64,000 nucleotides of DNA from a phage: the sequence record PQ826431.1; one strand, given 5' to 3'. The stretch's first letter is position 1. Each line of letters opens with the position of its first letter. Made by a program: the position numbers and the translations under genes. The notes beneath the pieces were generated by a model, which had not been told where the DNA came from, searched no databases, and worked only from the letters and a program-made list of their open reading frames with translations. Below are positions 50,955-64,000 of the stretch, piece by piece.

Positions 50955-51427
50955 TGGCAGATTTAACTACGATCAAAATTTCTGATCTTACACAAACAAC
51001 CTCTGTGTCTGATACAGATTTCTTTGTAACAGATCAGGCTGGAATAACAAAGAAAACTTCTTTGAAAGTGCTGTTGAGTGGTGCAGGGGTAACTAGAAAC
51101 CGTCTGAATGCACGGGGAACAGTAACTAGCACCTTGGCATTAGATATTAGTTCAGCAGAATATTTTTCAGCAACTTTATCTTCTGCAACGTGCACAATTA
51201 GTTTTACTAATATTCCAGTAGCAACAAATGCAGTTTTAAACTTTACTTTAGCTTTGCGTCAAGGAAGTGGTGCAAATAAAGTCGTATGGCCTTCTTCTGT
51301 AAAATGGAGTTTTGGTCGCCCCCCAGTTTTGAGTTATCGTCAAGGTGCAACAGACACTTTTGAGTTTATCAGTTATGATAATGGAGCAACTTGGACAGGT
51401 AGCTTAGTTTTAGCAGGAGTTATTTAA
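50954..51427 (+). CDS. baseplate/tail protein (putative)
   Basis: 157 aa, overlapping start/stop. Confidence 0.4.
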   Translation: MADLTTIKISDLTQTTSVSDTDFFVTDQAGITKKTSLKVLLSGAGVTRNRLNARGTVTSTLALDISSAEYFSATLSSATCTISFTNIPVATNAVLNFTLALRQGSGANKVVWPSSVKWSFGRPPVLSYRQGATDTFEFISYDNGATWTGSLVLAGVI

Positions 51428-54303
51428 TGTCAAGAGTTAAGCACAATATTGACAACACGTTTCAGTTGATTGAAGGGTTGGTTCAGTTTTTGGAAAGAAA
51501 TACTGGTCTTACCATAGATCCTACGGTTCAGCATTACATTATCAACCCACAAAACGTATTGGCGAACAACAGACACTTTATTAACTGGACAGCGCAGGAA
51601 GGGCAACCAAACGGTGACGCTACTACCGAAGGTCAATCTGTGCTTATCACTGGTTTTGCTTATGCATATTTGGCTACAGGGGATAAAAAATATCTTGAAT
51701 CTGCCGAGAAGTATTGGCAAGCTTATATAGATCACTTCTTCGGGGGCCAACCTATTCCTGATCCTCCGGCTAAATATCGTCCCAACTGGATCATCAATGG
51801 TAAAGAACCACGTTTAGCACATTACCCTCTCACAGATGATGGGTATCCTACGCACGGTGGGTTCAAAGGTAGCATGATGACTTGGATTAACGGAAGGACT
51901 ATTATTCCTAAAGGTGCGCCACACTGGGGAGAATACTTAGATAAAGCTTGGTTTGCTTTCAATGGTAATCTTGGTTGGAACTCTGTTAACGCAACAGTGT
52001 ATGCAACTAACCCAGATGGTTCAACCAACTGGAAAGAATATGGAGATCAGTGGGACGTTGAATGGATTATAGACCGTCTAGGACGTAAAGTTGATTGGGA
52101 TGGTAACATTTTATCTACTGGTCATAGCTTTGCAGAATATGGAACAGTGCAACTTAAAAACGCTTCTGTGAACGGTGACTATAAATTCAACTACGCTACA
52201 TGCAACCCTGTAGAACACGGTGGGTATCTACTTAAACGTAATGAGATGTGGCATAACCGTCCTGTAAACGTTCCGGTAGAGTTAGGTTATCAAGATAATG
52301 CTTCCGATGCTGAAACGTGGTGGTGTGATGCAAACTACTTGATGTATCAGATCACAGGAGAGAGAAAATACTGGCTTTGCTGGCAATCTTCTTTATTGCT
52401 GTGTCAAGACTACTCAAACATCGATATGTTTGATAAATTCTTCCGTAGATCTACGACAGCAATAATTCCTTTTACAGATGGTATTTCTTATGATTACTCA
52501 TACCCATCTACAGCAATACCTAAATATTCTCGTGACGAATTAGGATACACAGTAATTCGCCAAGATGTTGCAGCACAAACAACTCTAGAACAACAGGCAG
52601 TTTGGTTCAGAGTGGATCAGAATTCAAAACTACGTATTGAGTTTCAAGGCGTAGATGATGCAGGGGAAGGTGTTCTTTTCCGTCCAGAGTTAGAATTAAG
52701 CAAGACTAAGAGTGAAACAGACACAGTGACATATCGTTGTGGCTTACCTCTTGGTGCAGCTAATATGACTAAGATGGATATACCTTTATCCAGTTTTATG
52801 CGCACTGAACCTCCTGGAGGTGGTGTATATATTATTGCCGAACCTAGAATCATTGTTGACTGGGGAAGCAATACTGTGATACAATATAAATATGCAACTG
52901 GTATTGCTGGGACAAATAGTGATCAGATAGTTTCTGCTAATATGGATTCAGATGGTGGTTTTACTATTGGGTTTTGGTTAACACCAACTAAAACAGCCAA
53001 TTTAAAATCTATTACGTATCGTTCATACGCAGATGATTTTAACATCACTATTACGGATTCCGCAGGTTGGAGATGGTGGGCTATGTTAGAAAAAACAAAT
53101 TCTGCATGGGTTACTAAAGCTTTAAGTCCTGCTGATTTCAAATTAAGTACTTGGCAACCTAATCACGATGACACAGAGACAAAACCTTCGTCAATAAACC
53201 TGACTGCTGTTGATCAGATCAACATTGCATTGGATTCTGAACCTGCAAATGGCTTGACAGGGGCAATCGACTTTTATTGCGTTAACGATATCCCATCTTT
53301 GTATTCTTCAGCCGCTGGCGATGATTACACAATGTATTTCAGGGTTACAGTTTCATCTGAAAATCCTTATACAGCAAAACTTGGAGATTGTACAATACTG
53401 GACTACAAACTTGACAGTTTGAATTATACTCCAGGAATCATTCCATTTTCCAATATTAGTGATCCTAATACAGCATTATATGACGGTTGGCGTGGTATTC
53501 CTTACCCAGGTTATCAATACCCATCCTTATATTGTTTTAAAGGGAGAGATATTGACTGGGTTCGTATGAACAACAGTATAGACTTTTTATATGATTCACA
53601 AATGTGGTTTTATAATAAGTTTGCCCCTGTAATGCCTGGGCCAATGGCACAAGCTTATGTTTGGGATCGTTGGGATGCTCATAAATATGGAAACAAAAAT
53701 GAGTTCACAATGTATCATTGGAACGATAAAGCTTGGGATGGTTATGAAGCACGAGCATTCTTCTGTGCGTGTCATACGGTATACGAACTAAAGCGACGAG
53801 GAGCCGAAGTTCCTGAAAAACTTTTAACAGTTTGTAAAAACTGGATCAACTACCTGAAGTGGTTCCAAGATAACAACGAAGGAAGAACACCAACAATATT
53901 TTATCCCAACGGAGAAGTGGCTGCGCCTGTAGATGACTTTACAAGTCACATGTCTGCGCTCTTTATGGCGGGATGTGCTATAATGGGGATGGCTGGATAT
54001 GATTCAGAAATTCCTAACATTAAAATAGTAGCAGACCGCTGTTTTGAACTTATTCAGGAAAACTATATTGTTCTTGGTCCTAATCACGTTATGAATGGTT
54101 GTTGGAGTGCTGCTCCTAGACCAGACAGTGATAACGGAGTCTTCTTTGGCTTCCACGCTGGAGAGTTGTTACGTGGTTTTGGGTTGTATGCTTTATACAA
54201 AAAACTTAATCCCCAAAATGCATTACCTGTTTTGGATTCGAGCAATATTCCTGCACTTACTGTTTTGACAATGGCAAACATTAGTGTGGACGTTACCGAG
54301 TAA
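51427..54303 (+). CDS. large structural protein (958 aa), possibly carrying a glycan-degrading domain
   Basis: Largest ORF in tail module; enzymatic role is speculative. Confidence 0.4.
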   Translation: MSRVKHNIDNTFQLIEGLVQFLERNTGLTIDPTVQHYIINPQNVLANNRHFINWTAQEGQPNGDATTEGQSVLITGFAYAYLATGDKKYLESAEKYWQAYIDHFFGGQPIPDPPAKYRPNWIINGKEPRLAHYPLTDDGYPTHGGFKGSMMTWINGRTIIPKGAPHWGEYLDKAWFAFNGNLGWNSVNATVYATNPDGSTNWKEYGDQWDVEWIIDRLGRKVDWDGNILSTGHSFAEYGTVQLKNASVNGDYKFNYATCNPVEHGGYLLKRNEMWHNRPVNVPVELGYQDNASDAETWWCDANYLMYQITGERKYWLCWQSSLLLCQDYSNIDMFDKFFRRSTTAIIPFTDGISYDYSYPSTAIPKYSRDELGYTVIRQDVAAQTTLEQQAVWFRVDQNSKLRIEFQGVDDAGEGVLFRPELELSKTKSETDTVTYRCGLPLGAANMTKMDIPLSSFMRTEPPGGGVYIIAEPRIIVDWGSNTVIQYKYATGIAGTNSDQIVSANMDSDGGFTIGFWLTPTKTANLKSITYRSYADDFNITITDSAGWRWWAMLEKTNSAWVTKALSPADFKLSTWQPNHDDTETKPSSINLTAVDQINIALDSEPANGLTGAIDFYCVNDIPSLYSSAAGDDYTMYFRVTVSSENPYTAKLGDCTILDYKLDSLNYTPGIIPFSNISDPNTALYDGWRGIPYPGYQYPSLYCFKGRDIDWVRMNNSIDFLYDSQMWFYNKFAPVMPGPMAQAYVWDRWDAHKYGNKNEFTMYHWNDKAWDGYEARAFFCACHTVYELKRRGAEVPEKLLTVCKNWINYLKWFQDNNEGRTPTIFYPNGEVAAPVDDFTSHMSALFMAGCAIMGMAGYDSEIPNIKIVADRCFELIQENYIVLGPNHVMNGCWSAAPRPDSDNGVFFGFHAGELLRGFGLYALYKKLNPQNALPVLDSSNIPALTVLTMANISVDVTE

Positions 54304-54311
54304 GGGGTAAA

Positions 54312-56465
54312 ATGAAACAAGCTATATTTACTGTCACGCGAGACAAGAGAGTAAATGCGAGTTCATTTAACTACACGACTGTTGACGGAACAGCAGTCGC
54401 TGGTAGAGATTATATTGCAAAATCGGGAACACTTGTGTTCCCTGATGATGCTGATTCTGCTACTATTGTGGTTGAAGTATTTGAACGACCAAAGAACTCA
54501 ATAGATCTTAACTTCTCCCTCCAAGTTTCAGGGATTAGTCAAAATAACATGATGGTTGAAACAACCATCAATTGTATTATAACTACTATCCAAGAAAATA
54601 CTACTCCAATAACTTGGACTACAAAAGACGTTAAAATGTTCTCTCCTATGTATTGGACAATAGATTCTCAAGCAACGGAAAGTTGTTCTATTGTATCTCA
54701 TGGAGACTCTTTTACTGCAAGATTTGTAAACAGAACAACAGCAGGTTTGGCAGGGGTTATCTGGAGCACAGTTGACAAATATGACCATAAAGGTGTTGGG
54801 TATTTGCCTCACACAGATTTAAGTTCAGAGAAACTTTGGTTTAAAATGGAAATTAGTCAAAACATGCCAGGTTTTAAAGAAGAACCTTTGGTGCCGACTT
54901 TAACTGTAACTCTCCTGGATAAAAGTGTTCATTATGTCAGTTTAGGATTCTACGCTTCAGATATTTCAGAAGATGGTAAAACAGCCACAATCAAGTTAGA
55001 TTTTGGTAATATCTTTTCTGGCCCTAATAATGATATTCCTTTGGATATGAGTGCTGTAGATAATATTTTCTTCTCTTTGATTACAGCAAGGTATGAAGAA
55101 ATAGAAGAGATTGTGCCTATTGATAGTCAAGAGGCTTGGTTTACTTTCACTCTTCTTGAACCTACTTCTGGTTACAGTATGATGAAAGTCAGCAACCTTG
55201 TCCAGCCTGAACATGATATTCGTATGTGCACATCTTATGATGATATGTATAACCTGACTCCAGAGAGAGTTATTTATAATACATATGCGCTAGGTTATCG
55301 TGGGATGATTAACCATTATAACGGAATGTCCCATTATTATGAGTTCTCATGGAATGGAACATCTTGGGCTTTAAATAGATCTGTCTTCCTGAATCCTGCT
55401 ACAGAAGCTTGGCTAAATAGTTTCCATTCTATAGCAAACGAGAAGGGCTACACAATAATGAACTCTTTAAGTTTTGAATTGATGAGCACAGTTTGTCCTG
55501 TAGAATGGGTCCAGCATGATTGGAACGATGCTCTTGCAGCAACAGGGTATAAGCCTCCTAGTTACGTGTTGTCTCCAACTATTGACGAAGGCATGGAATA
55601 TTTGCAAAATGTTATTAACAAAATAGCATCTATTTCTCAAGCTAATAACATTCCAGTCGTCATTCAAATTGGTGAACCTTGGTGGTGGTATAATACAGCA
55701 AGTAAAATGCCTTGTATATATGATTACACTACCAAACTGGCATTCAATACAGAAACAGGCTTATTTGCACAAGATGCAGGAACAATAGATAATTATAAAA
55801 CAGGAACGCCATTTGACGAATACTATGCATTTTTGTCTCGTAAACTAGGGTTAAGAGTTACAAAGTTTGCAACAGACACCAGAGCAACTTACCCAGGAGC
55901 TAAAGTAACATTGCTTCCGTTCTTACCATCGATTATCGGCAACGGTTTGATGGAGAAAGTTAACTTTCCGTCTGATTACTACATTCCTGAAGCTTTTGAT
56001 TTTTACTGTTCAGAGTGTTACGACTGGCTTCTGGAAGGTAAGATGATGAAAGCATTTGATGCAATTACCATACCACATGAAAAATTAGGTTTTGAATATT
56101 CTGATATTCACTATCTTTCGGGTTTTGTTCCAGATGCTACTCTTGCACCTTTGTATGGCTTCGATCCTGAATCAAACTACCGCACGTATCTTTGGAAAAT
56201 GATTATAGGTAATATAGTGTTGAACGCCAATAAGTTCAATGGGCTTACACAATACATATGGGCCTATCCTCAAATAATGCATGATTCTATCACGGTAGTT
56301 AATTCTCAATCCCAAGTTTTCTATATGGGTAACGTGCCTTTGAACGTTTATTTACAGGATATCACTCTTAAACAGGTAAATGTTGAGATTGCCACCATAA
56401 GTGGAATTACATTAGCCACTAAATCTGGAGAAGATTTAGTAACAACGCAAAAATTTTATATATAG
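54312..56465 (+). CDS. tail fiber/baseplate structural protein (717 aa)
   Basis: Large ORF in tail module. Confidence 0.4.
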   Translation: MKQAIFTVTRDKRVNASSFNYTTVDGTAVAGRDYIAKSGTLVFPDDADSATIVVEVFERPKNSIDLNFSLQVSGISQNNMMVETTINCIITTIQENTTPITWTTKDVKMFSPMYWTIDSQATESCSIVSHGDSFTARFVNRTTAGLAGVIWSTVDKYDHKGVGYLPHTDLSSEKLWFKMEISQNMPGFKEEPLVPTLTVTLLDKSVHYVSLGFYASDISEDGKTATIKLDFGNIFSGPNNDIPLDMSAVDNIFFSLITARYEEIEEIVPIDSQEAWFTFTLLEPTSGYSMMKVSNLVQPEHDIRMCTSYDDMYNLTPERVIYNTYALGYRGMINHYNGMSHYYEFSWNGTSWALNRSVFLNPATEAWLNSFHSIANEKGYTIMNSLSFELMSTVCPVEWVQHDWNDALAATGYKPPSYVLSPTIDEGMEYLQNVINKIASISQANNIPVVIQIGEPWWWYNTASKMPCIYDYTTKLAFNTETGLFAQDAGTIDNYKTGTPFDEYYAFLSRKLGLRVTKFATDTRATYPGAKVTLLPFLPSIIGNGLMEKVNFPSDYYIPEAFDFYCSECYDWLLEGKMMKAFDAITIPHEKLGFEYSDIHYLSGFVPDATLAPLYGFDPESNYRTYLWKMIIGNIVLNANKFNGLTQYIWAYPQIMHDSITVVNSQSQVFYMGNVPLNVYLQDITLKQVNVEIATISGITLATKSGEDLVTTQKFYI

Positions 56466-56473
56466 GAGTAAAA

Positions 56474-58150
56474 ATGTCAACTACAATTACTAATTTACCC
56501 GAAACATCAAAAGTTAACGGTTCAGATTACCTGGTTTTAGATCAACCTGATAAAACTGTTAAAAGCACAGTTTCCAATTTTCTTGCTGACACTGGGGTGG
56601 TTTTAGCCACCCAGTTGAAAGATACAGATGGAGCAGATTCAGGTTTATCCATTATCGGCACTAACCACCGGGGGACTTTACAGGAAGATTTAGATGCTAT
56701 CGACCGTCGTCCTGATGGGTATTCCAATAATATCCAAACAGTTCTATCGAATGGCCAGGATGTGCAGATTGCAAAAGATATTAATATCACAACAGTAATA
56801 TCGCCTGTGGCTGACTACCAAGTAATTCAAGGGGTAGGTGGTTTAGTCTCCAATACTACAAAAACGCAAGCTGTGAATATTAATGGAAAAAACGGGGTTA
56901 AAGTAAGAGATATACGTGTTTCTGGTTTAATTGTGAATGCCCCTACAACTGGGGGTAATGTGGCGTATGCTGTTAATGCTAATGACTGCTCAGATATTTC
57001 AATGATTGGTATTAATACATTTGGCTATACAGGCTCTGTGCAGCTGACAAGAGTTGCAGACTCAGTTGTTAGGGATGTGTATTCTAGAGGTAATAGATAC
57101 CATTCTGATGTTGTTGCTGGCGGGTATGGAGTTCTTCTTGGCGGGTGTAAGAGAGTTCTCATTGACGGTATTAATTTTGAGGCTGACCATGCAAAGGGCG
57201 ACTTAGGTCGCCATGCTCTGTATGTGTCCGTAGTACAGTCAGATGGTTCGTACTGTGAGGATATTATTGCAAAAAATATTATAGGTCGCTATTCAGGTGT
57301 CGATGACCGTAATATGTGGTTTATTAATATTCGCCATAGTAAGCGAGTATTGGTAGATGGGTTACTGCTGCAAGGTGGTAACGGTGGTGTAGCACTAAAC
57401 ACTGATGACGGAGAAGTTAGAGATACTCAAATAAAGAATGGGCATTTGCAAGTTCTCCAGTATGGAAGCGACACTGTCTATGGCATTAGTGGTACACCTG
57501 CTGATAGTTCTCTTCTTAACAACCTCCTGATTAGTGGTGTCTCTTTTGATATGCAAACCAAACTCGGGGTTACAGCCACCACAAACGGCATAATTCCGAT
57601 ATCTCTGAGTTGTCAGCGTTCACGTATCGAGAACATTAAAATAGCAGGTAACGGTGCGTCTACACCAATATTGCTAGGCTCCTGCTCACAATTAACCATT
57701 GATGGGGTCACTGATACGATAAACGCTGGTAGTGTTACCCAACCATTCTTGCGATTTCAGGGAACTTGCTCTGATATATCAGTGCTGAACATAGATACCC
57801 CTAGAGATACTATGTTCTTTGGGCTGGATAATGTAACTAACCTTACTGTCAACTGGGAGCGGTTTGGTCGTATTGTGAGTAACAACGGAACCATCAACAT
57901 ATCCGATAGCAACTCACTATTCAGTTCTGTCACTAGTACAGGTACTGGTGAGATTACTGTTGTATTCAAAAATCACGTTACCATTGATGCGGTCAGGAAT
58001 TGCACTGTAACCCCAGCATCGACGGCAGGATTTGTGTGTCTGCCAGAGGTTGTTGGTCGTAACTTAATTTTACGTTTCTATAATAGCAATGGTACGTTAG
58101 TTCCCCTTGCTTCTTCCATTGTATCGGCTGATGTTAGGTTACATTCATAA
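56474..58150 (+). CDS. tailspike-like protein with predicted right-handed parallel beta-helix (pectin-lyase-like fold)
   Basis: Repetitive beta-rich segments 'VRDIRVSGLIVNAPTTGGNVAYAVNANDCSDISMIGINTFGYTGSVQLT...VLIDGINFEADHAKGD'; N-terminal region similar in composition to other fiber N-termini in the module. Confidence 0.5.
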   Translation: MSTTITNLPETSKVNGSDYLVLDQPDKTVKSTVSNFLADTGVVLATQLKDTDGADSGLSIIGTNHRGTLQEDLDAIDRRPDGYSNNIQTVLSNGQDVQIAKDINITTVISPVADYQVIQGVGGLVSNTTKTQAVNINGKNGVKVRDIRVSGLIVNAPTTGGNVAYAVNANDCSDISMIGINTFGYTGSVQLTRVADSVVRDVYSRGNRYHSDVVAGGYGVLLGGCKRVLIDGINFEADHAKGDLGRHALYVSVVQSDGSYCEDIIAKNIIGRYSGVDDRNMWFINIRHSKRVLVDGLLLQGGNGGVALNTDDGEVRDTQIKNGHLQVLQYGSDTVYGISGTPADSSLLNNLLISGVSFDMQTKLGVTATTNGIIPISLSCQRSRIENIKIAGNGASTPILLGSCSQLTIDGVTDTINAGSVTQPFLRFQGTCSDISVLNIDTPRDTMFFGLDNVTNLTVNWERFGRIVSNNGTINISDSNSLFSSVTSTGTGEITVVFKNHVTIDAVRNCTVTPASTAGFVCLPEVVGRNLILRFYNSNGTLVPLASSIVSADVRLHS

Positions 58151-58350
58151 TACTTAGCCCCTCTTTGTAGGGGCATTACTTAGAAAAACAAAGAGGTTGT
58201 TATGAACGAAATGTTCTCACAAGGCGGTATTGCCCCAGGTACTACTGCCATTAGTCTTAGTGCTGCCGGAGTATTAGTTCACTCTGCGGGTAATGTGGAC
58301 CTTGGGGAATTAGCTGCATATCGTGATTTAAAAAGTAATGAGAACGCACT

Positions 58351-58593
58351 ATGAGAAAATTTTTAATAGGTATGTTCTGTACATATCCTGATAATAAAGT
58401 CAGTTCTACGAAAGTCTGGAACGCTGTAGGCATGTCGGTTATGACAGGCATGTTTATCTTTTTAGGAATAGAAAAAGAAATTCCTGAATGGATGGGTTGG
58501 GCTTTTGTTTTCATGATAACTCCTTCTCGCCTCATGAAAAATCTTATTGATTTACGCTGGGGCAGATCACAATCTACCAAAGAGGATGACTAA
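58351..58593 (+). CDS. small membrane protein (80 aa)
   Basis: Two hydrophobic segments; embedded in the tail fiber region; an unlisted 50-codon ORF (about 58201..58353) precedes it with ATGA overlap. Confidence 0.4.
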   Translation: MRKFLIGMFCTYPDNKVSSTKVWNAVGMSVMTGMFIFLGIEKEIPEWMGWAFVFMITPSRLMKNLIDLRWGRSQSTKEDD

Positions 58594-60721: not shown

Positions 60722-61783
60722 ATGGCGAAGCCAATATATTATCCTGACTGGGCTACACAAACTGTAACGCTCCCAGGAACTTTAAACACAAACAAAATTA
60801 GACCTAAAGAAACCATCCGCACAGTTGGTATGGATTATGGTCAAATCATGACTTGCGAAGAAATGAACTGGATTCTTAATAATATCGGTTTATGGATTCG
60901 CTATTTGGTGGATGATTTTCTTCCAACTTTACCTAATACCTACTTGCCTTTAGTGGGAACTAAGATTACAATGGCAGGTGATGCTACTGGTGAGGCCACT
61001 TGGAACGGTAACAAAGAAGTTACTTTATCTATCCAAGTTCAAGATAACAGTCATAATCACTTGTCAGCAAACATTACAGATGCCACTAGTTCAACAGTAA
61101 CACCAAACGTGCTGGTAAAACGTGATGCGGGTGGTGCTATTTATGGTGGCGATGTTTATGTTAACGGTACTTCCACAACAGATCCTGCAACACTGTTCTT
61201 CAAAAACTTTGCAGGACAAACAAATGGTGAGATTTCTGCCGAGTATCAAAGCGGAGGTCAGCTTTACATCTATCGTAGAAATCCTAGCACAGGTAGTGTA
61301 TCGGCAGGTATTCGTTTATATGACGCAGGTTATGTTCTAATAGATAATCCAAGATCAAACAGTGGACAAGATACTTCTAACGGAAATGCTTTAGTTCGTT
61401 TAGATTATCTGAACTCTCGTTTGACTTCCCTTCAGAACACATTGCAGACGAATATTAACACTGTTCAAAACAACTTGAATAATGTTAACAACAACCTCTC
61501 TTCTCGTATAAACAATGTAGAAAGTAATCATCAAAGTCAGATTACAAATAACTACAACTATGCTAACGGAACCTTTGTAAGAGATATTCGTTATACTAGC
61601 CAAGGTGTGTATTATCCACCAGGGAACGAGGTTTCTTGGACTTATATCTGTTCTTCTGGTTATGTTCTTTCTGGTATTATCGTACAGGAAACAGGACGTA
61701 GCTCTGCGGATAACATCGGTGGGGTTTACTTCAAACGCCTCCAGCGCAACGTTAACGGAAACTGGTACGATATTGGAGGCTAA
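60722..61783 (+). CDS. tail fiber protein with trimeric coiled-coil-like Asn/Gln-rich repeats
   Basis: 'LQNTLQTNINTVQNNLNNVNNNLSSRINNVESNHQSQITNNYNY' heptad-like repeats typical of fiber shafts. Confidence 0.5.
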   Translation: MAKPIYYPDWATQTVTLPGTLNTNKIRPKETIRTVGMDYGQIMTCEEMNWILNNIGLWIRYLVDDFLPTLPNTYLPLVGTKITMAGDATGEATWNGNKEVTLSIQVQDNSHNHLSANITDATSSTVTPNVLVKRDAGGAIYGGDVYVNGTSTTDPATLFFKNFAGQTNGEISAEYQSGGQLYIYRRNPSTGSVSAGIRLYDAGYVLIDNPRSNSGQDTSNGNALVRLDYLNSRLTSLQNTLQTNINTVQNNLNNVNNNLSSRINNVESNHQSQITNNYNYANGTFVRDIRYTSQGVYYPPGNEVSWTYICSSGYVLSGIIVQETGRSSADNIGGVYFKRLQRNVNGNWYDIGG

Positions 61784-62329
61784 ATGATATTTACAAACTT
61801 TAAAAAATATATTCCTGAAGACCCTGAACTAAAAGAATTGGTAGAAGCAGAGAACATTCTTTTTCTTCGTTGCGATCAAGGTTACGATTGGTATGATTTA
61901 CGTAGCACAGAATTCAATAACGATAAAATGAAAGTCGTTTTTGATGATCAAAATCGTATTGTGTTTTGGAATACTGATCCTACACTACTTTGCCCTGAAG
62001 ATCTTTCTATAGCACAAGTAGACTTTAATATAGATACTTTTGAGGATATTAGGAACAAGGTTCTGGATTTAGAAACCTTAACTCTTAAGGATAAAGAGTA
62101 TTCCCGTGAAGAGTTGATGACACAAGCTAGTGCAAAAATTCGCTCTTTACAAGAAACAGCGGTAGCACTTATAACACCTTTACAGTATGCTAAAGATTTA
62201 GAAATGGCTACTGAAGACGAATTAGCTTATCTTAAAAATCTTCAAGTTTATGTAGTTAAACTAAATCGTGTTCCGCTTCAAAAAGACTATCCTTACGCTA
62301 TAGATTGGCCTACATTACCGACAGAATAA
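61784..62329 (+). CDS. tail fiber assembly/chaperone-like protein (putative)
   Basis: 181 aa directly downstream of fiber gene; by position. Confidence 0.35.
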   Translation: MIFTNFKKYIPEDPELKELVEAENILFLRCDQGYDWYDLRSTEFNNDKMKVVFDDQNRIVFWNTDPTLLCPEDLSIAQVDFNIDTFEDIRNKVLDLETLTLKDKEYSREELMTQASAKIRSLQETAVALITPLQYAKDLEMATEDELAYLKNLQVYVVKLNRVPLQKDYPYAIDWPTLPTE

Positions 62330-62677: not shown

Positions 62678-64000
62678 ATGGCAACATTCCCAACATATCC
62701 AGCAACGTCTCTCGAACAGGGCGTAGACCTGGTTATTTTCTCATCTAACCAACTCCATGATGTTATTAATGGAAGTGCTACAGAGAGTATTGAAACAGAA
62801 TCAGGGTTGATACCAACCCTGAGAAAAGCCCTTGTTGACAACTTTTTCTTTAAAAGCCCATTGGATTGGGCGCAAGGCACAAACGAAACAGTTTTTAACC
62901 AACTTCGTTATTTCCAGAATGGAGTATTGAGCGGTTATTACTATGCCCCTAACGCTACATTGGTTAACCCAATCCCTATGCAAGGGACTCCAGTAGGAGA
63001 TAACAACTGGGTATTGTGGGGACTGAAGACAGAACAATTGGCAACAGAAGTCACCCCTTGGGTATATTCTGGTGCAACTGGTTATGAAACAGTAATTAGT
63101 CCTCCTTACATCTTTGATAGTGCTATTGTTACGATCAATGGTGTTATTCAGGTTCTGGGGGAAGCTTTCCGTATAGAAGATAGTAAGATCATCTTATCTG
63201 AACCTTTGGGACACGATCCTGCAACAGGACTGCCAAACAAACTTTTTGCTTATATTGGCAAAATCGTAGCTTCAGCAGATACAGATCCTAATCTAGAGAA
63301 CCGTCTTGTTAGTTTAGAAACAAAAACGGAAGAACTAACAGAAAGCATGGATAAAGTCCCTCTGCAAACTATTGCTCGTAAGTATGGTTTGTTAGATGAT
63401 GAGGTGGCTTACGCAACAGCAGGTCAATCGTTAACAGGGATTAAAGCTCTGTATGATCCGGTAGCGCAGTCTTCCTACACATTACCTCCTAACATTACAG
63501 GCACTTTAACATCCTTGTCTGTTTCTGGAGTAATGACTTATTCTGGAGGATCTGTAGACCTTTCTGCACTGGCTGTTGAGCGTGGACAGTTTGTTCATTT
63601 GCCTACAAGCTTTGGTAATAATGTAACTCTGACAGCTAAAAATCAGACGATTGGACGTGGCGCTGGTCGTTATCGTTGGGCTGGAAGTTTACCAAAAAGT
63701 ATTTTGGCTTCCGATACCTTGGAGACGAGCGGAGGATTAGGTCCAAATGCATGGGTTCTGACTAATACAGAAGGACTGTTAACCCCTCGTGGTGGAACAT
63801 ACAACGATTTATTCGATGTTGTCTACTTGTCCGAATTTGCTAACAATATAACTACCTATACCACACCAGAAGCAGCTTTCCAAGCGGCACTGTTAGCAGC
63901 AAAAGCTTCGAAAAGCAAGATTCTCGATGCTTACGGTTGCGATATGACTTTCACGACAAGCTCTTTTGATATTCAAGGTATCACTTTGCGTGGGGGTGTG
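62678..64000 (+). CDS. tail fiber/tailspike protein, partial (continues beyond window)
   Basis: Manual translation from ATG at 62678 (MATFPTYPATSLEQG...) appears open to the window end; N-terminal region resembles the N-terminus of the 56474 tailspike-like protein in character; not in ORF track because no stop is reached. Confidence 0.45.
   Translation, partial: MATFPTYPATSLEQGVDLVIFSSNQLHDVINGSATESIETESGLIPTLRKALVDNFFFKSPLDWAQGTNETVFNQLRYFQNGVLSGYYYAPNATLVNPIPMQGTPVGDNNWVLWGLKTEQLATEVTPWVYSGATGYETVISPPYIFDSAIVTINGVIQVLGEAFRIEDSKIILSEPLGHDPATGLPNKLFAYIGKIVASADTDPNLENRLVSLETKTEELTESMDKVPLQTIARKYGLLDDEVAYATAGQSLTGIKALYDPVAQSSYTLPPNITGTLTSLSVSGVMTYSGGSVDLSALAVERGQFVHLPTSFGNNVTLTAKNQTIGRGAGRYRWAGSLPKSILASDTLETSGGLGPNAWVLTNTEGLLTPRGGTYNDLFDVVYLSEFANNITTYTTPEAAFQAALLAAKASKSKILDAYGCDMTFTTSSFDIQGITLRGGV

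Follow-up and report, generated by a model that had tools for sequence, protein, structure and literature searches.

Which of the proteins encoded in the interval 51427–58150 of this phage DNA meet the host surface, which of them would set the host range, and what kind of module do they form together? For this part of the window (the whole stretch of 64,000 nucleotides analysed here, sequence record PQ826431.1), an earlier note had proposed two candidate receptor-binding enzymes, namely a 958-aa protein and a beta-helix tailspike. Both open reading frames exist where the note placed them; a third gene lying between them, which encodes a protein of 717 aa, had been overlooked. Taken as a whole, the interval is best explained as part of the multivalent adsorption apparatus known from phi92/phAPEC8-type myophages, namely its gp141-gp142-gp143 block, a reading to which we assign a probability of about 0.8.

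Gene order and phage group

In a search of the phage collection, the interval is ~98% identical at the DNA level to Phapecoctavirus genomes, and the source phage is a Phapecoctavirus, i.e., a phAPEC8-like myophage of the subfamily Stephanstirmvirinae. The three genes are closely packed, with gaps of only 8 nt between them (Table 1). They are syntenic with gp141, gp142, and gp143 of phi92, and their counterparts in phage Ukendt (gp243, gp242, and gp241, respectively) follow the same gene order. An exact-sequence look-up found none of the three proteins in the protein collection.

The trio is embedded in a contractile-tail baseplate operon that includes the hub, central spike, sheath initiator-like protein, wedge subunits, short tail fibre, and chaperone. 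The neighbours in common with phi92 are the spike, the sheath initiator, a small fibre-like protein, gp141, gp142, the tailspike slot, a membrane protein, and the wedge. The segment 49592–50326, in which Pfam recognizes a spike N-terminal domain and a beta-helical trimerisation domain, corresponds to the phi92 baseplate spike. Promoter and terminator signals between 51000 and 59000 show no excess over shuffled sequence, and the hairpin just 3' of the tailspike stop codon, having no T-run, was not called a terminator. Given this lack of excess signals and the 8-nt gaps, the trio is most simply regarded as part of one late operon, and the three genes would be co-transcribed as late genes together with the baseplate genes. 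On the scale of the whole window, the GC skew changes sign at ~28000 (about -0.2 up to 28 kb, about +0.1 beyond), consistent with a switch of transcription direction between two large gene blocks.

Table 1. Features of the gp141-gp142-gp143-like block, with positions in the window.
Feature	Position	Strand	Basis
gp141-like peripheral baseplate protein, 958 aa	51427..54303	+	homology, synteny, fold
gp142-like protein, 717 aa	54312..56465	+	Pfam, PDB, phi92 homology
GMSHY motif, aa 338–342 of the 717-aa protein	55323..55337	+	read in translation
Beta-helix tailspike, 558 aa, gp143 slot	56474..58150	+	predicted fold, PHROGs
Putative N-terminal virion anchor, tailspike aa 1–54	56474..56635	+	alignment of six sequences
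Swapped receptor-binding cassette, tailspike aa ~56–558	56640..58155	+	similarity boundaries
Conserved Tyr/His/Arg cluster of the tailspike	56966..57334	+	59 body homologues

The phi92 block belongs to the "Swiss army knife" adsorption apparatus of Justusliebigvirus, as far as the description by Schwarzer et al. (2012) is relayed in later papers (PMC5380687, PMC11984140, PMC13450770). The suggestion that the phage carries multiple receptor-binding proteins agrees with what has been published on the phi92/phAPEC8 group (PMC8594841, PMC11984140, PMC13450770). The two long fibres that had been counted among them turned out to be something else. The gene at 60722 encodes a 353-aa short tail fibre of the phi92 gp147 (fibre III) type and is followed by a gene for a 181-aa chaperone at 61784, the pair spanning 60722–62329 on the + strand. 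The second open reading frame (62678–64000, +) runs off the end of the window, contains a Tail_spike_N domain at aa 302–361, and matches both "colanic acid degradation" and tailspike PHROGs; by these matches, it is the N-terminal part of a predicted second tailspike of the phi92 gp150 type.

The 958-aa and 717-aa proteins

The 958-aa protein is the orthologue of phi92 gp141, to which it is 83% identical over 100% of its length, in the same position of the baseplate operon; among PHROGs, it matches phrog_2871 with E = 0 over aa 1–957. Searches for characterized relatives gave no match in Pfam, nothing relevant by phmmer against PDB, and, with a profile of the family against PDB, only a hit of E = 0.12 to a GH76 enzyme. 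The AlphaFold2 model (pLDDT 88.7) contains about 11 long helices. Those at aa 7–104, 293–330, and 699–927 build an (alpha/alpha)6 glycosidase-like barrel, with beta-rich insertions at aa ~120–290 and ~350–660 and a disordered C-terminal tail (aa 930–958). The enzymatic domain for which the earlier note had considered the protein large enough thus has a counterpart in the predicted fold. The same fold is found in (alpha/alpha)6 glycoside hydrolases (GH8, GH76, GH105/GH88) and AGE-type epimerases, at sequence identities of 9–14%, but, unlike theirs, the barrel of the 958-aa protein is broken up by beta domains that amount to about 500 residues. As only the fold is common and no family-level sequence signature was found, we did not file the protein as a member of GH8, GH76, or GH105.

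Full-length homologues with 30–75% identity occur in rV5-like, PVP-SE1-like, Felix-O1-size, Vibrio, Erwinia, and jumbo phages, as well as in (pro)phages of Pseudomonas and Stenotrophomonas. A protein with such high conservation in phages whose hosts differ widely is unlikely to set host range, and the same distribution over unrelated hosts argues against a host-specific depolymerase. Two natural fusions point to a platform role. In P0207, the wedge domain of P2 gpI is joined to a gp141-like part, whereas P0214 combines a gp141-like part with a gp142-like one (52% identity over 571 residues), a physical coupling that supports a link between these two proteins. Judged by conservation and fusions, the sequence data favour a platform function, or some other general one, over host specificity.

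It is a real possibility, if somewhat short of an even chance, that the role of the 958-aa protein in the baseplate is structural only, its barrel no longer catalytic and its conserved residues serving folding and assembly. The residues in question are numerous: 92 columns are invariant in the alignment of 64 homologues, and the invariant positions include the acids D64, D294, E296, D336, E388, D750, and E913 along with many aromatic and Arg/His residues. This abundance of invariant acidic, aromatic, and Arg/His residues speaks against a structural role only. So does the naming of a glycosidase-domain protein by the BASEL annotators and in the phi92 literature, which lists gp141 and gp142 as glycosidases and calls gp143 an endosialidase tailspike (PMC5380687). 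In the reading that we favour, it is a conserved protein of the baseplate periphery with a putative glycosidase-like (alpha/alpha)6 barrel as its core.

The 717-aa protein, which is 77% identical to phi92 gp142, comprises three Pfam domains, all above gathering thresholds: Calx-beta (PF03160, aa 4–82), NCTSP_N (PF23844, aa 107–292, 59 bits), and the NCTSP TIM barrel (PF23845, aa 299–658, 266 bits), the threshold being 27 bits for each of the latter two. Sequence search of PDB aligned aa 361–606 to N4 Gp64 (E = 4e-30) and aa 269–344 to the N4 non-contractile sheath protein gp65 (E = 1e-12); the TIM-barrel match spans both the gp65- and the gp64-aligned segments. The GMSHY motif lies within the second segment, which is aligned to gp65 residues 343–416. 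By both NCTSP domains and this motif, the protein is classified as a predicted NCTSP, N4 gp64-gp65-like protein.

With the sheath heterodimer gp64/gp65 of N4 (PDB 9LC0, 9YF4; PMC13434306) it has in common NCTSP_N, TIM-barrel_NCTSP, and GMSHY, but a single polypeptide covers here the parts that N4 splits between gp64 and gp65. Moreover, the 717-aa protein belongs to a contractile-tail baseplate, whereas gp64/gp65 surround the tail tube of a podovirus; it has an extra N-terminal Calx-beta domain and does not have the gp65 domains D9–D10, which hold the N4 tail plug. The alignments suggest that one myophage chain has been divided in two by N4, or the reverse.

This relationship bears on the receptor. 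[quoted passage not shown] NGR is the N4 glycan receptor, and rV5-like and phi92-like phages depend on wecB and nfrB, and so on this glycan (Sellner et al., PMC8669472). The BASEL study found a common predicted poly-GlcNAc-deacetylase-like domain in a conserved protein of rV5- and phi92-like phages and in N4 Gp64 (PMC8594841). The literature that we searched contained no report of NGR dependence for Phapecoctavirus itself. Motif and domain content make the 717-aa protein a candidate binder or processor of the NGR glycan, which most likely recognizes, and possibly modifies, this exopolysaccharide. It is the best-supported predicted receptor-binding protein of the interval.

The tailspike and its exchanged body

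The 558-aa protein has the PHROGs label "tail spike protein", and searches of Pfam and of PDB sequences gave nothing useful. We modelled it as a monomer with AlphaFold2 from an alignment of 64 sequences (pLDDT 87.9, pTM 0.83). Disorder in the model is limited to residues 1–56, and strands extend from residue 96 to 556. The top Foldseek matches in PDB are the tailspikes of Sf6, Dettilon, CBA120 (TSP3), HK620, LKA1, and P22, with E-values from 6e-9 to 1e-5 and a probability of 1.00. The predicted structure confirms the right-handed parallel beta-helix tailspike that the earlier note had read from repetitive segments. At the level of folds, its interpretation is supported, as the structure predictions yielded a beta-helix for one protein and an enzyme-like barrel for the other. 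A match of the alignment profile to CBA120 TSP4 in PDB (E = 1e-33) was discounted, since its best columns belong to the Tail_spike_N domain of other members, absent here, and the body is poorly aligned. With the O-antigen tailspikes of P22, Sf6, and HK620, the 558-aa protein has in common a beta-helix followed by a beta-rich C-terminal domain and an exchangeable N-terminal adaptor, although sequence identity to them is only 10–12%. Homologues of its body are also found joined to the P22 head-binding domain in P22-like prophages.

The N-terminus is nearly invariant. We aligned this tailspike with three other Phapecoctavirus-type tailspikes, that of Ukendt, and phi92 gp143 (EndoN92), and over the first 54 residues all six sequences agree at 51 positions, only positions 16, 38, and 52 being variable. 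The first 54 residues of phi92 gp143 differ from those of the 558-aa protein at just two positions, while the bodies are unrelated, that of gp143 being an endosialidase with a C-terminal chaperone domain. In the 558-aa protein, a beta-helix body of 500 residues follows the anchor directly, without the Tail_spike_N domain of many Phapecoctavirus alleles. We infer that the tailspike, presumably a trimer, docks on the virion via this invariant 54-residue N-terminus.

From 51427 to ~56640, the DNA is 98% identical to Phapecoctavirus genomes. Similarity to other genomes of the genus stops at window position ~56625–56640 (query position ~5200) and resumes at 58156–58169, past the stop codon; hence, it is exactly the tailspike body (aa ~56–558) that has been exchanged. 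The only whole-length DNA match to the interval is "Campylobacter phage B15" (98.6% identical). Among 50,697 phage records, the body itself was found only in B15 (98%), the next matches being to Enterobacter phages at 55% and 53%. In the large protein collection, homologous bodies (64 aligned) are attached to several adaptors, including Tail_spike_N (24 cases), P22 Head_binding (8), and the T7 tail fibre N-terminal domain (8). Its occurrence behind three different adaptors marks the body as a receptor-binding module that is traded horizontally, and by these comparisons the 558-aa protein likewise has an exchangeable N-terminal virion-attachment module. Phage EmilieFrey has no gene at the third position of the block, which makes the tailspike position a facultative slot.

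The body has itself recombined. Residues 107–226 are 98% identical to the homologue P0004 and ~60% identical to P0002 and P0003, while residues 227–558 are 87–96% identical to P0002/P0003 and ~60% identical to P0004, placing an intragenic breakpoint near aa 227 (window ~57150). By these identities, the body is chimeric and the whole protein a three-part mosaic.

Several observations were made in passing. A 50-aa open reading frame (58202–58354, +) with a ribosome-binding site of its own shares an ATGA overlap with the beginning of the following gene. It aligns with an internal portion of tailspike PHROG families (phrog_7992, E = 7e-13). At the same spot, Ukendt encodes a 102-aa "tail protein", and other genomes, B15 included, align in two pieces with about 156 extra bases. 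From these matches, the frame looks like a shortened relic of tailspike cassette exchange. The host labels of "Campylobacter phage B15" (MG065650) and "Staphylococcus phage MBBL139" (OR786095) look doubtful; the former is 98.6% identical to the present Phapecoctavirus locus, which is of E. coli type, and the latter has an enterobacterial-type tailspike body (42% identity).

Target polysaccharide and place in the virion

The closest homologue with a readable genomic context, P0004, is a tailspike encoded by a P22-like prophage that also carries genes for ejection proteins, Arc/Mnt, gtrABC, and an integrase. The prophage is located at argW, adjoining yfdC-mlaA-tRNA-Arg, and its flank is 99.8% identical to E. 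coli. Its tailspike gene directly adjoins the O-antigen modification genes gtrABC. A tailspike beside O-antigen glucosylation genes is the classical layout of O-antigen-targeting phages such as P22 and Sf6, so this neighbourhood favours O-antigen over capsule as the target. By analogy, the 558-aa tailspike most likely targets an E. coli O-antigen. A caveat to this reading is that aa 227–558, the C-terminal two-thirds of the helix and most likely the specificity-setting part, stem from podovirus-type tailspikes, the type to which both parents of this segment (P0002 and P0003) belong. Among 5,426 complete E. coli genomes, only one partial match to the tailspike was found (69% DNA identity, interrupted by IS1), and the O-serogroup is hence not assignable.

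Conservation within the body hints at the chemistry. In 59 body homologues, 26–95% identical to the query, the polar helix residues Y165, Y209, H210, Y218, R246, H247, Y250, R279, and R287 are 85–100% conserved, and their spacing of roughly one rung places them on successive rungs of the beta-helix. The same 59 homologues hold no conserved carboxylate pair within aa 97–413, the sole conserved acids being D414 (83%) and D96, with which the helix starts. The hydrolases of P22, Sf6, and HK620 use an acidic pair, whereas the 558-aa protein has the conserved Tyr/His/Arg cluster instead. This cluster is a candidate substrate or catalytic site that would be in keeping with a lyase acting by beta-elimination, or with an unusual site, rather than with a two-carboxylate hydrolase site of the P22/Sf6/HK620 kind. 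For the protein as a whole, the options are a lyase, an atypical hydrolase, or a tailspike that only binds.

Against the capsule-dependent host range that the earlier note had suggested as one option, the context of the tailspike homologue points to O-antigen. We consider it unlikely that the tailspike is directed to a capsule or exopolysaccharide (K antigen or colanic acid): besides the prophage tailspike next to gtrABC, the top Foldseek matches (Sf6, Dettilon, CBA120 TSP3, HK620, P22) are O-antigen tailspikes. Lyase chemistry does not argue for capsule either, as lyase tailspikes also cleave acidic O-antigens, e.g., LKA1 gp49. A binding-only tailspike, i.e., an adhesin without depolymerase activity, is unlikely too, because nine polar Tyr/His/Arg residues kept on successive rungs down to 26% identity resemble an active site more than a variable binding surface, and most characterized beta-helix tailspikes are enzymes (PMC5380687). 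We infer that the exchangeable body serves to bind, and probably also to cleave, one specific polysaccharide of the host surface, most likely an E. coli O-antigen. In this way, the baseplate would reach the outer membrane, and the short tail fibre encoded at 60722, together with the baseplate, would trigger contraction there.

The location of the two conserved proteins in the virion can be approached through phi92. A 2026 cryo-EM study of this phage assigned gp143 to the tip of fibre I and gp147 to fibre III, but gave no assignment for the fibre I arm or for any part of fibre II (PMC13450770). In the same study, gp141 and gp142 were neither located in the virion nor mentioned; only fibre-shaped candidates were screened, and the globular gp141 and gp142 were not considered (PMC13450770). 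Three features make these two proteins natural candidates for the unassigned density, namely their place in the gene order, the fusions found in nature, and an anchor that stays invariant whichever tailspike occupies the slot. Tentatively, and with the odds rather against it, we propose that the gp141-like and gp142-like proteins together form the proximal "arm" of the L-shaped fibre I and/or fibre II, as a wedge-attached platform, and that, separately, the tailspike is an O-antigen lyase. Such a platform may be a conserved, predicted two-enzyme glycan-processing unit on which the tailspike docks via its invariant 54-residue N-terminus, and the lyase may employ the conserved Tyr/His/Arg cluster instead of hydrolase chemistry.

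The locus is thus a known multivalent adsorption module of phi92/phAPEC8-type phages, in which only the rare mosaic tailspike allele is new; no new biological principle is implied, and the practical value is modest. The variable receptor-binding protein of the phage is pinned down as a three-part mosaic tailspike found in just one other sequenced phage, and gp141 and gp142 are flagged as strong candidates for the baseplate densities that cryo-EM of phi92 could not assign. For host-range engineering of phi92/phAPEC8-type therapeutic phages, the exact cassette boundaries, i.e., an invariant 54-residue anchor and a free body, are what is needed.
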